The position numbers and the translations under genes are program-made. A DNA stretch of 64,000 bases from Escherichia coli (GTDB lineage: Bacteria; Pseudomonadota; Gammaproteobacteria; Enterobacterales; Enterobacteriaceae): assembly GCF_003334815.1 (NCBI RefSeq), contig NZ_QOWO01000008.1; one strand, 5' to 3'. This document shows positions 27,287 to 59,524 of the stretch, piece by piece. Within the stretch, counting starts at the first letter, position 1. Each line of letters starts with the position of its first letter. Below the pieces are notes generated by a model. That model made no database searches. It was given only the letters and a program-made list of their open reading frames with translations, and was not told the DNA's origin.

Positions 27287-28948
27287 TCAAAATGTTTCCC
27301 AGTTTGGATCTTGTTCAGCAATTCGCAGTCGTGGCTGAGCCGGTGGTTGCTCACTGGCAGGACGGGATGGTGTTTGCGGTTTATTGGTGAGTGGGCTGGC
27401 TGCCAGACGGAACGCGGAAACTGCTTGCGTTAAACGACTCGCCTGTTCTTCCAGCGCAGCGGCGGCGGCAGCTGATTCCTGCACCAGCGATGCGTTCTGT
27501 TGCGTGACGCGATCCATTTCCGAAACCGCCAATGCGACTTGATCGATGCCACGGCTCTGTTCATCCGATGCCGATGCAATCTCGCCCATAATGTCAGTCA
27601 CGCGAGTGACAGCATTGACGATATTGTTCATTGTTTCCCCGGCGCTTTCGACCAGCACCGAACCGGTATCAACGCGTGAGACGGAGTCTTCAATGAGGGC
27701 TTTGATCTCTTTTGCCGCCTGGGCGCTGCGACTGGCAAGATTACGCACTTCACCCGCCACCACGGCAAAACCACGGCCCTGTTCACCCGCACGCGCGGCT
27801 TCAACCGCGGCATTCAGCGCGAGGATATTAGTCTGGAAGGCAATACCGTCGATAACGCTGATAATGTCGGCAATTTTCTTCGAACTATCGGCGATCTCAT
27901 GCATCGTTTTCACTACGCCATCCACCACTTTGCCGCCGTGCTGGGCGGTGTCGGAGGCACTTTGCGCCAGTTGCGAGGCCTGGCGGGCGTTATCGGCGTT
28001 TTGCTTCACTGTCGCGGTGAGCTGCTCCATGCTGGCGGCAGTTTCTTCCAGCGCGGATGCCTGCTGTTCAGTACGGGAGGAAAGATCGGTGTTGCCCGCC
28101 GCAATTTCACGGGTACCGGCATAGATGGCATCTGAACCTTCGCGGACATGAGTGACGGTGTCAGTCAAAGAGCGTTGCATATGTGAAACGCTCTGCGCCA
28201 GGTCGCCCATTTCACTGCGCCCGTCAATGGTCAGGGTATTCGCCAGGTTACCACCGGCGATTTCGCGAATGTGAGCAATAATTTTTGCCAGCGGAGTAAG
28301 CAACATACGGCGAATGCCGTACCACGCCACCAGCAGAATCAATACCACCACCAGCGCGATAACCGCCAGTTGCCACTGGGCAAATCGGTAATCATCTGCG
28401 TTGTCAGTGACGATATCGCGATACAGTTTTTCACTGCTGAGGGCGTACTGAGCAAACGCTTCGCCCATTGCATTTTGCATTCCCTGGGTTGGCTGAGCGA
28501 AATAAGCTCCAGTATTGCCATAATCTAGATAATCAATCAGTTCAGTTAACGCTGTGTAATAGTTTTTATATTTTTCATCAATATTACGACTGGTAGCGAC
28601 CATTTCAGGTAACGGTGCCATGCTTTTGAATTTTTTATAATGCGTCGCTGCCTGCGCCAATGTTTTCCTGGCGCTATCGAGCAATTCAACTTTGGCGTTA
28701 CTTTGTTGATTGGAGGAATCCATCATCATCCGTACCGCTGAACGACTCAGGTTAATGCGCGTTTGCAGCATTAAATCCCAGGTTGACGTCAGCTCGCCCT
28801 GCTGTTCCCGTAATTGATTGGAAACCACAAAGCTCTTCTGGCTATGGTGAAGGGAAGAAAAAAACAGACTGCCGGAAATAAGCTGTAACAGTGCGAATAC
28901 CCCCAGCACCATTACCAACAGCGTGACTACGCGGATACGGTTAATCAT
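27287..28948 (-). CDS. tar: Methyl-accepting chemotaxis protein II (aspartate) Tar
   Basis: 553 aa from [22 protein letters not shown]; C-terminal NWETF pentapeptide. Confidence 0.93.
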
Positions 28949-28979
28949 AAGGCACCTTCCTGAAAACAAGTTGATCTCG

Positions 28980-29006
28980 TTATCGGCAAGGAGGGGGGAA
29001 ACTTTA
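28980..29006 (-). promoter_or_regulatory. sigma28 (FliA) class 3 promoter of the tar-tap-cheRBYZ operon
   Basis: Minus-strand TAAAGTTT-N11-GCCGATAA, exact consensus. Confidence 0.8.
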
Positions 29007-29034
29007 TTGCTGATGCCACCCGCCGCGAAATTGA

Positions 29035-29064
29035 AATAAAAAACCCGATGCGCAGATCATCGGG
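29035..29064 (-). terminator. Rho-independent terminator after cheW
   Basis: cccgatgcgcagatcatcggg hairpin followed by T-run on minus strand. Confidence 0.7.
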
Positions 29065-29092
29065 TTCATTTCAATTGAGGAAATCGGGAGAA

Positions 29093-29596
29093 TTACGCCA
29101 CTTCTGACGCCGCGCTATCTAACAGCGCCATCTCTTCGCTGTTCAGCAGTTTTTCGATGTTCACCAGAATCAACATCCGGTCGCCCAGTGCGCCCAGTCC
29201 AGTGAGATATTCTGTTGAAAGCGTCACGGCAAATTCCGGTGCCGGACGAATTTGCTCCGCCGTCAATGAAAGCACGTCTGAGACGCCGTCAACCACGATG
29301 CCGACCACCCGCTGTCCGAGATTCAGGACGATAACTACCGTGTTGTCGTTATAGTCCACATCCACCTGGCTGAACTTAATTCGTAAGTCAACAATCGGCA
29401 CAATAACGCCGCGCAGATTCGTGACGCCTTTGATAAACGCTGGCGTGTTCGCAATCCGTGTTACCTGATCGTAGCCACGGATCTCCTGCACTTTCAGGAT
29501 ATCAATACCGTACTCTTCATCACCAAGGGTAAATACCAGAAATTCCTGGCCTGACGGCTCGCTGGCCAGCTTTGTTACATTCGTCATACCGGTCAT
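29093..29596 (-). CDS. cheW: Chemotaxis coupling protein CheW
   Basis: 167 aa. Confidence 0.97.
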
Positions 29597-29616: not shown

Positions 29617-32508
<2,892 letters not shown>

Positions 32509-33522: not shown

Positions 33523-34101
33523 TTAAACAGCCTGTACTCTCTGTTCATCCAGCAGTTGTGGGATAATATCGGCAGGATTCTGGGAAAGTTTACGTCTTTT
33601 TACTGCCCGGGATGGCGGTTGACATAAGCTGCAGGCAAAGCTGCCAACAGGCTGGTGAGCGTGGGTAATAAAATTGCCGCCGCAGCAGTTGCAGCTGGAA
33701 AGTTGCAGTAATCCACTTTCAACAAACCGCACCAATGTCCAGGCACGGGTTAATGCCAGCAGTGGTCCTTCTTCTGCTTGTGGGCACTGTTCAAGGTATA
33801 AACGGTAGGCTTTGATCACCGCATCGACGCCATTACACAAACCGGTTTTCAGTAAAAACTGCCATGCATTACAGAACATCGAAGCATGAACGTTTTGTTC
33901 CCAGGTCATAAACCAGTCGGTTGAGAATGGCAGCATGCCTTTCGGCGGTGGGCTTCCGCGCAGTTCTTTATAAAGTTTTATCAGGCGTCCGCGACTTAAC
34001 TGTGTTTCGCTTTCCAGCATCTGCAAACGAGCGCCCAGGGTGATCAATTCCATTGCCAGCTGAATATCCCGCGCTTCCTGAACAATGCTTTTTTCACTCA
34101 T
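33523..34101 (-). CDS. flhC: Flagellar master regulator subunit FlhC
   Basis: 192 aa, [20 protein letters not shown]. Confidence 0.97.
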
Positions 34102-35668: not shown

Positions 35669-39021
<3,353 letters not shown>

Positions 39022-59378: not shown

Positions 59379-59405
59379 TTATCGTCTGTCGTAAAACAAC
59401 CTTTA
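59379..59405 (-). promoter_or_regulatory. sigma28 class 3 promoter of fliC
   Basis: Minus-strand TAAAGGTT-N11-GACGATAA. Confidence 0.7.
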
Positions 59406-59497: not shown

Positions 59498-59524
59498 TAA
59501 ACTTTGCGCAATTCAGGCCGATAA
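59498..59524 (+). promoter_or_regulatory. sigma28 promoter of the fliDST operon
   Basis: TAAACTTT-N11-GCCGATAA on plus strand, about 45 bp upstream of fliD. Confidence 0.75.

Follow-up and report, generated by a model that had tools for sequence, protein, structure and literature searches.

Where does translation of tar begin when an in-frame start triplet lies a few codons upstream of the annotated one? In the window analyzed here (the whole 64 kb stretch of Escherichia coli contig NZ_QOWO01000008.1), the maximal open reading frame (ORF) of tar spans 27287..28969 on the minus strand and encodes 560 amino acids, starting at a TTG that lies seven codons (MFSGRCL) upstream of the annotated ATG. 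The initial annotation of this stretch proposed that the sigma28 promoter constrains the choice of the tar start, an interpretation that our analysis supports. It also described an upstream ATG at 28969: the coordinate of the longest ORF was right, but the codon is TTG rather than ATG, which further lowers the likelihood that it serves as a start. We conclude with high confidence that this locus carries the known class 3 flagellar promoter and the true Tar translation start at ATG 28948, and that TTG 28969 is a chance triplet of the leader, which means that the maximal ORF of 560 aa is seven codons too long. In what follows, the literature is the source for the +1 position, FliA binding and FliA dependence; this analysis is the source for the annotation, the energies of Shine-Dalgarno pairing and the sequence elements with their conservation. 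The coordinates of all features are collected in Table 1.

Table 1 Features of the tar promoter and translation start region, in window coordinates
Feature	Position	Strand	Remarks
sigma28 -35 element TAAAGTTT	28999..29006	(-)	consensus match; TAAAGTT invariant in 50 orthologous loci; within FliA ChIP-seq motif
promoter spacer cccccctcctt, 11 nt	28988..28998	(-)	length conserved, sequence variable except for an invariant T at 28988; mean majority fraction 0.54
sigma28 -10 element GCCGATAA	28980..28987	(-)	consensus match; invariant, 50/50
transcription start +1 (A) of the tar-tap-cheRBYZ mRNA	28972	(-)	PMC4604602; A invariant in 50/50 orthologous loci
5' untranslated leader AACUUGUUUUCAGGAAGGUGCCUU, 24 nt	28949..28972	(-)	derived from the sequence and the literature +1
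in-frame TTG opening the maximal ORF, judged a non-start	28967..28969	(-)	+4..+6 of the mRNA; only in 4 Escherichia sequences
Shine-Dalgarno GGAAGGTG, 4 nt before ATG	28953..28960	(-)	-10.2 kcal/mol; AAGGTG invariant, 50/50
tar coding sequence, 553 aa, MINRIRVV	27287..28948	(-)	RefSeq; ATG 28948-28946 invariant; N-terminus common to orthologues and Tap
intrinsic terminator after cheW	29031..29067	(-)	10-bp stem, 7-nt loop (29067-29041), T-rich tail TTTATTTCAA
cheW coding sequence, last gene of the motAB-cheAW operon	29093..29596	(-)	ORF and RefSeq

The tar promoter matches the sigma28 consensus exactly

Read along the minus strand, the region consists of TAAAGTTT (29006-28999), N11, GCCGATAA (28987-28980), cgagatc, A (28972), ac and TTG (28969-28967), followed by ttttca, GGAAGGTG (28960-28953), cctt and ATG (28948-28946). 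When matched to the sigma28 consensus in the version of PMC2859248, TAAAGTTT-N11-GCCGATAA at 28980-29006 (-) agrees at 16/16 consensus bases and is the sole exact match in the window, bearing out the exact-consensus promoter that the initial annotation had placed at these positions. By our own arithmetic, about 3e-5 exact 16-base matches are expected by chance in the 128 kb of two-strand sequence. Allowing up to three mismatches, we found five matches in the window against 0.57 expected, a number reached in none of 100 shuffles. All five are FliA ChIP-seq sites, at tar, motA (inside flhC), otsA (intragenic), fliC and fliD (Fitzgerald et al. 2014, PMC4183435).

The window corresponds to the flagellar region of MG1655. 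Its tar region is identical to that of MG1655 (NC_000913.3; 601 nt compared), and this stretch was found in 5384 of 5426 complete E. coli genomes. The sampled variants within E. coli differ only at 28993, in the promoter spacer, and at 28974, between the -10 element and +1. There is likewise no difference between the window sequence and either the E. coli K-12 Ptar of PMC4604602 or the FliA ChIP-seq motif of PMC4183435, and the promoter used in cryo-EM of sigma28 is the same one. The promoter in the window is the E. coli K-12 tar promoter (Ptar, or tarp) itself, the usual model of a class 3 flagellar (sigma28) promoter, and it drives the tar-tap-cheRBYZ ('meche') operon.

The remaining near-consensus sigma28 motifs, those of the motA promoter, otsA, the fliC promoter and the fliD promoter, lie at 33566-33592 (-), 36798-36824 (+), 59379-59405 (-) and 59498-59524 (+). 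The motA promoter inside flhC is the source of the MotR sRNA, and the intragenic FliA site in otsA is one without an expression effect. At the fliD site the window has GCCGATAA, where the table of Fitzgerald et al. 2014 (PMC4183435) has ACCGATAA.

The literature +1 of Ptar lies three nucleotides before the TTG

Ptar is given in PMC4604602 as TAAAGTTTcccccctccttGCCGATAAcgagatcA, with the -35, -10 and +1 capitalized. This +1 maps to window position 28972, 8 nt after the -10 element, and is a literature value from papers using Ptar rather than raw mapping data; it equals the start that the initial annotation had predicted at about 28972. For cryo-EM of the sigma28 initiation complex, this promoter (numbered -39 to +15) was supplied with ATP and CTP only, which fits an RNA beginning AAC. 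At aer, another E. coli sigma28 promoter, the start determined by primer extension is 6 bp downstream of the -10 octamer (PMC2859248), so that promoter geometry calls for a start no more than a few bases from 28972. With +1 at 28972, the 5' end of the mRNA reads AACUUGUUUUCAGGAAGGUGCCUUAUG. Only AAC (3 nt) precedes the TTG on the Ptar transcript, and the promoter does leave the upstream codon essentially leaderless, as had been argued from the sequence.

Published data tie this transcript to FliA. A FliA ChIP-seq peak lies on the exact tar 28-mer with a score 57 fold above threshold, and tar expression is 251 in motile MG1655 vs 0 in a fliA deletion (both PMC4183435). In a sigmaF mutant, tar is down 13-fold (PMC1935009). 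A transcription start site (TSS) at the expected coordinate (1,970,739 in U00096.2, equal to 1,972,715 in U00096.3) is absent from Kim 2012 (PMC3415461), from the Cappable-seq supplements and from the Cho 2014 supplements, which for b1886 give expression values only. The missing entry in these three genome-wide datasets is plausibly explained by ordinary MG1655 stocks barely expressing the flagellar regulon. Kim 2012 gives tar a weak TSS (3 reads) at window position 29356 (-), inside cheW and 408 nt upstream of the ATG; this site is upstream of the cheW terminator too.

That terminator separates cheW from Ptar. Its hairpin, GAACCCGATG-atctgcg-CATCGGGTT, is followed by the T-rich tail (29067-29031, minus strand) and folds at -19.1 kcal/mol (z = -5.1), a value matched by 0/200 shuffles. 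We also scanned the intergenic region for a sigma70 promoter able to feed the TTG, and the sole consensus-like match was on the opposite strand. On that plus strand, antisense to both the cheW terminator and the Ptar -35 element, Rfam RF00116 'C0465 RNA' matches at 28996-29073 with 111.6 bits (gathering score 40). C0465 is absent from the current NC_000913.3 annotation, its overexpression gave no biofilm or motility phenotype (PMC4606813), and the promoter scan found no plus-strand promoter-like site upstream of it. It may be an array-era sRNA candidate rather than a real RNA. When the leader was searched for known RNA elements in Rfam, this opposite-strand candidate was the only hit.

A strong Shine-Dalgarno sequence leads the annotated ATG

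The initial annotation had suggested checking for a Shine-Dalgarno sequence before 28948, and one is present: GGAAGGTG at 28953-28960 forms a -10.2 kcal/mol duplex with the 16S rRNA 3' end, which ranks in the top 2% when all 6231 ATG/GTG/TTG triplets of the window are compared. In the mRNA, GGAAGGUG ends 4 nt before the AUG, inside the range of 4 to 9 nt of a canonical Shine-Dalgarno-led start. This strong site, on a leader of 24 nt, agrees with the short conventional leader that had been suggested for ATG 28948. RefSeq starts tar at this ATG in all five records inspected, including MG1655 (NC_000913.3, tar 1971030..1972691), so the internal ATG that had been taken as the annotated start of a 553-aa protein beginning MINRIRVV is indeed the annotated one. 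The TRAINSPOTTER supplements, consulted for direct evidence on the Tar N-terminus, have no Tar entry.

No canonical Shine-Dalgarno-led start is found at TTG 28969. On a hypothetical longer RNA, the 20 nt upstream of this codon would pair at -5.0 kcal/mol, which falls at the 31st percentile. The ORF that begins at ATG 28948 (27287..28948) gives the same protein as annotated Tar, and the seven extra codons of the maximal ORF appear in no annotation and are not conserved.

The promoter and the ATG are conserved and the TTG is not

A scan of one genome per species yielded 55 orthologous tar loci, of which one (L048, with no canonical start) was dropped. The resulting 54 loci, from Escherichia, Salmonella, Citrobacter, Enterobacter, Lelliottia, Kluyvera and other genera, together with the window formed a comparison set of 55 sequences. 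Ptar is present at the orthologous position, with constant spacing, in 54/54 loci. Between the -10 element and the ATG lie 31 nt in 50 of the 55 sequences and 32 nt in the other five, and the -35/-10 spacing does not vary. Across the 50 loci in ungapped register, conservation is 100% for TAAAGTT, T-GCCGATAA, A 28972, AAGGTG and the ATG; the bases flanking A 28972 are variable. The N-terminus M-x-N-R-I-R is common to all orthologues and to the paralogue Tap (MFNRIRIS), which is encoded just downstream.

At the TTG codon, the mean majority fraction in the 50 loci is 0.53, among the lowest in the region. Of the 55 sequences, four have TTG here (all Escherichia), 23 have TCG (Salmonella, Citrobacter) and 17 have AAA; AAG, AAT, CAA, ACG or CCA is found in the remaining loci. 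Seven species carry an in-frame stop within the seven-codon extension; in six of them codon -5 is TAG or TAA, and in the seventh codon -2 is TGA. Five loci have a 1-nt length change in the interval 28949-28969. The extension therefore does not behave as coding sequence, which would be open, in frame and conserved in orthologues.

The 24-nt leader as a whole is 22 to 23/24 identical among Escherichia, Salmonella and Citrobacter, next to an 11-nt spacer that is scrambled in the same genera (loci L005-L023, L053, L055 and L056). Its 5' half (28961-28972 (-), AACU[U/C]GUU[U/A]UC) is almost unchanged among them and seems to be constrained for a reason beyond the Shine-Dalgarno sequence. Such a site could be a small RNA or Hfq target, a promoter escape signal or an mRNA stability signal. 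It is a long shot, in our estimate, that this half of the leader is an undescribed post-transcriptional control site or else that the TTG gives rise to a rare, Escherichia-specific, N-extended Tar from read-through RNA.

In E. coli strain E1 (NZ_CP195951.1, locus L060, about 1557-2300), an IS1A copy is inserted inside the tar Shine-Dalgarno sequence (...TTTTCAGG, then IS1). This strain has a rearranged mot/che region in which cheA and cheW carry pseudogene annotations, and it is presumably non-chemotactic.

Translation from the TTG is improbable on any transcript

In the mechanism that we favor, RNA polymerase carrying sigma28 (FliA) would recognize TAAAGTTT-N11-GCCGATAA (29006-28980, minus strand) and start the mRNA at A 28972. 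The ribosome would then bind the Shine-Dalgarno sequence GGAAGGUG (28960-28953) on the 24-nt leader and initiate at AUG 28948 to make the 553-aa receptor, and at TTG 28969, at +4 of this mRNA, there would be nothing upstream for a ribosome to bind. We infer that no protein is made from TTG 28969. The promoter argument taken alone may leave room for translation of the TTG on longer RNAs, produced by read-through from cheW or from the TSS at 29356; as the TTG has neither a Shine-Dalgarno sequence nor conservation, this gap is closed.

A minor 560-aa Tar isoform, specific to Escherichia and translated from the TTG on longer RNAs that read through the cheW terminator or start weakly inside cheW, is the likeliest of the alternatives, although we consider it very unlikely. 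The weak tar TSS of Kim 2012 (3 reads) at 29356 could supply such an RNA, a GAG triplet (28978-28976) lies 6 nt before the TTG with a pairing energy of -5.0 kcal/mol, and the four Escherichia sequences and the E. coli variants that were inspected all keep the TTG. However, this RNA would have to pass a strong intervening terminator, the Shine-Dalgarno energy is unexceptional for the window, TTG is a poor start codon, and outside Escherichia the codon is not conserved and the same stretch contains in-frame stops in seven species. Retention of the TTG within Escherichia is explained by very low divergence, the whole leader being identical. Furthermore, the fliA deletion brings tar expression to 0, so there is next to no contribution from any sigma28-independent RNA. 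We hold it to be less probable still that transcription in vivo begins at a site other than the literature +1 and so far upstream that the TTG gains a functional leader. The +1 does come from later users of Ptar rather than from primary mapping, but the -10 element ends at 28980, so a sigma28 start must fall a few bases downstream of it, as the mapped aer start does. Were transcription to begin at 28975-28977, the TTG would still be preceded by no more than 5 to 8 nt and would lack a Shine-Dalgarno sequence. The invariance of A 28972 amid variable flanks in 50 genomes also speaks against a displaced start.

Least credible of all, to the point of being nearly negligible, is a leaderless-like use of the TTG on the sigma28 transcript itself, with a 5' untranslated region of 3 nt before the codon. 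In E. coli, leaderless translation generally relies on an AUG at the very 5' end of the mRNA, and codons other than AUG have almost no activity in this context. The tar mRNA resembles leaderless mRNAs such as that of lambda cI in having very little sequence, just 3 nt, before the candidate codon. However, leaderless mRNAs have AUG at or next to the 5' end, whereas the tar mRNA has UUG at +4 and then a conventional, strong and invariant Shine-Dalgarno sequence with an AUG 21 nt downstream of the UUG. Leaderless initiation at the TTG was rejected on these grounds, together with the lack of conservation of the codon; the tar mRNA is not a leaderless mRNA. The reading in which Ptar is followed by a single Tar start at ATG 28948 is already known textbook biology, and nothing at this locus departs from the published picture, so that our view of Tar, of the sigma28 regulon and of translation initiation is unchanged. 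The locus is of value only as a teaching and quality-control example, in which an in-frame start codon farther upstream can be dismissed once the transcription start has been mapped or predicted with confidence.

Maximal ORFs over-extend neighboring chemotaxis genes

A second lesson concerns 'longest ORF' gene calls, which over-extend real genes. The remark in the initial annotation that several maximal ORFs of the six-frame track are too long holds locally for three of the four chemotaxis genes compared: the maximal ORF exceeds the RefSeq start by 18 codons in cheA, seven in tar and one in tap, and in cheW by none. For cheA, the maximal ORF begins at 31635 vs a RefSeq start at 31581 (-), the 18 extra codons running from a TTG. 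For tap, the positions are 27244 vs 27241 (-), the one extra codon being a TTG directly before the ATG. Like tar, cheA and tap thus have an in-frame ATG/GTG/TTG upstream of the annotated start. However, their true starts are not fixed by a promoter, because both are internal operon genes, and only in tar does the transcription start cut off the extension.

Eleven Enterobacter species (L025, L027, L028, L030-L032, L034, L035, L038, L044 and L054) have an in-frame ATG 15 nt upstream of the tar ATG. It is codon -5 and overlaps the Shine-Dalgarno sequence (tctATGagaaggtg). At this codon, Lelliottia and several further genera have TAG, and TTG, ATA or CAA is found elsewhere, which indicates that codon -5 is not coding, and longest-ORF callers would over-extend tar in these Enterobacter species too.
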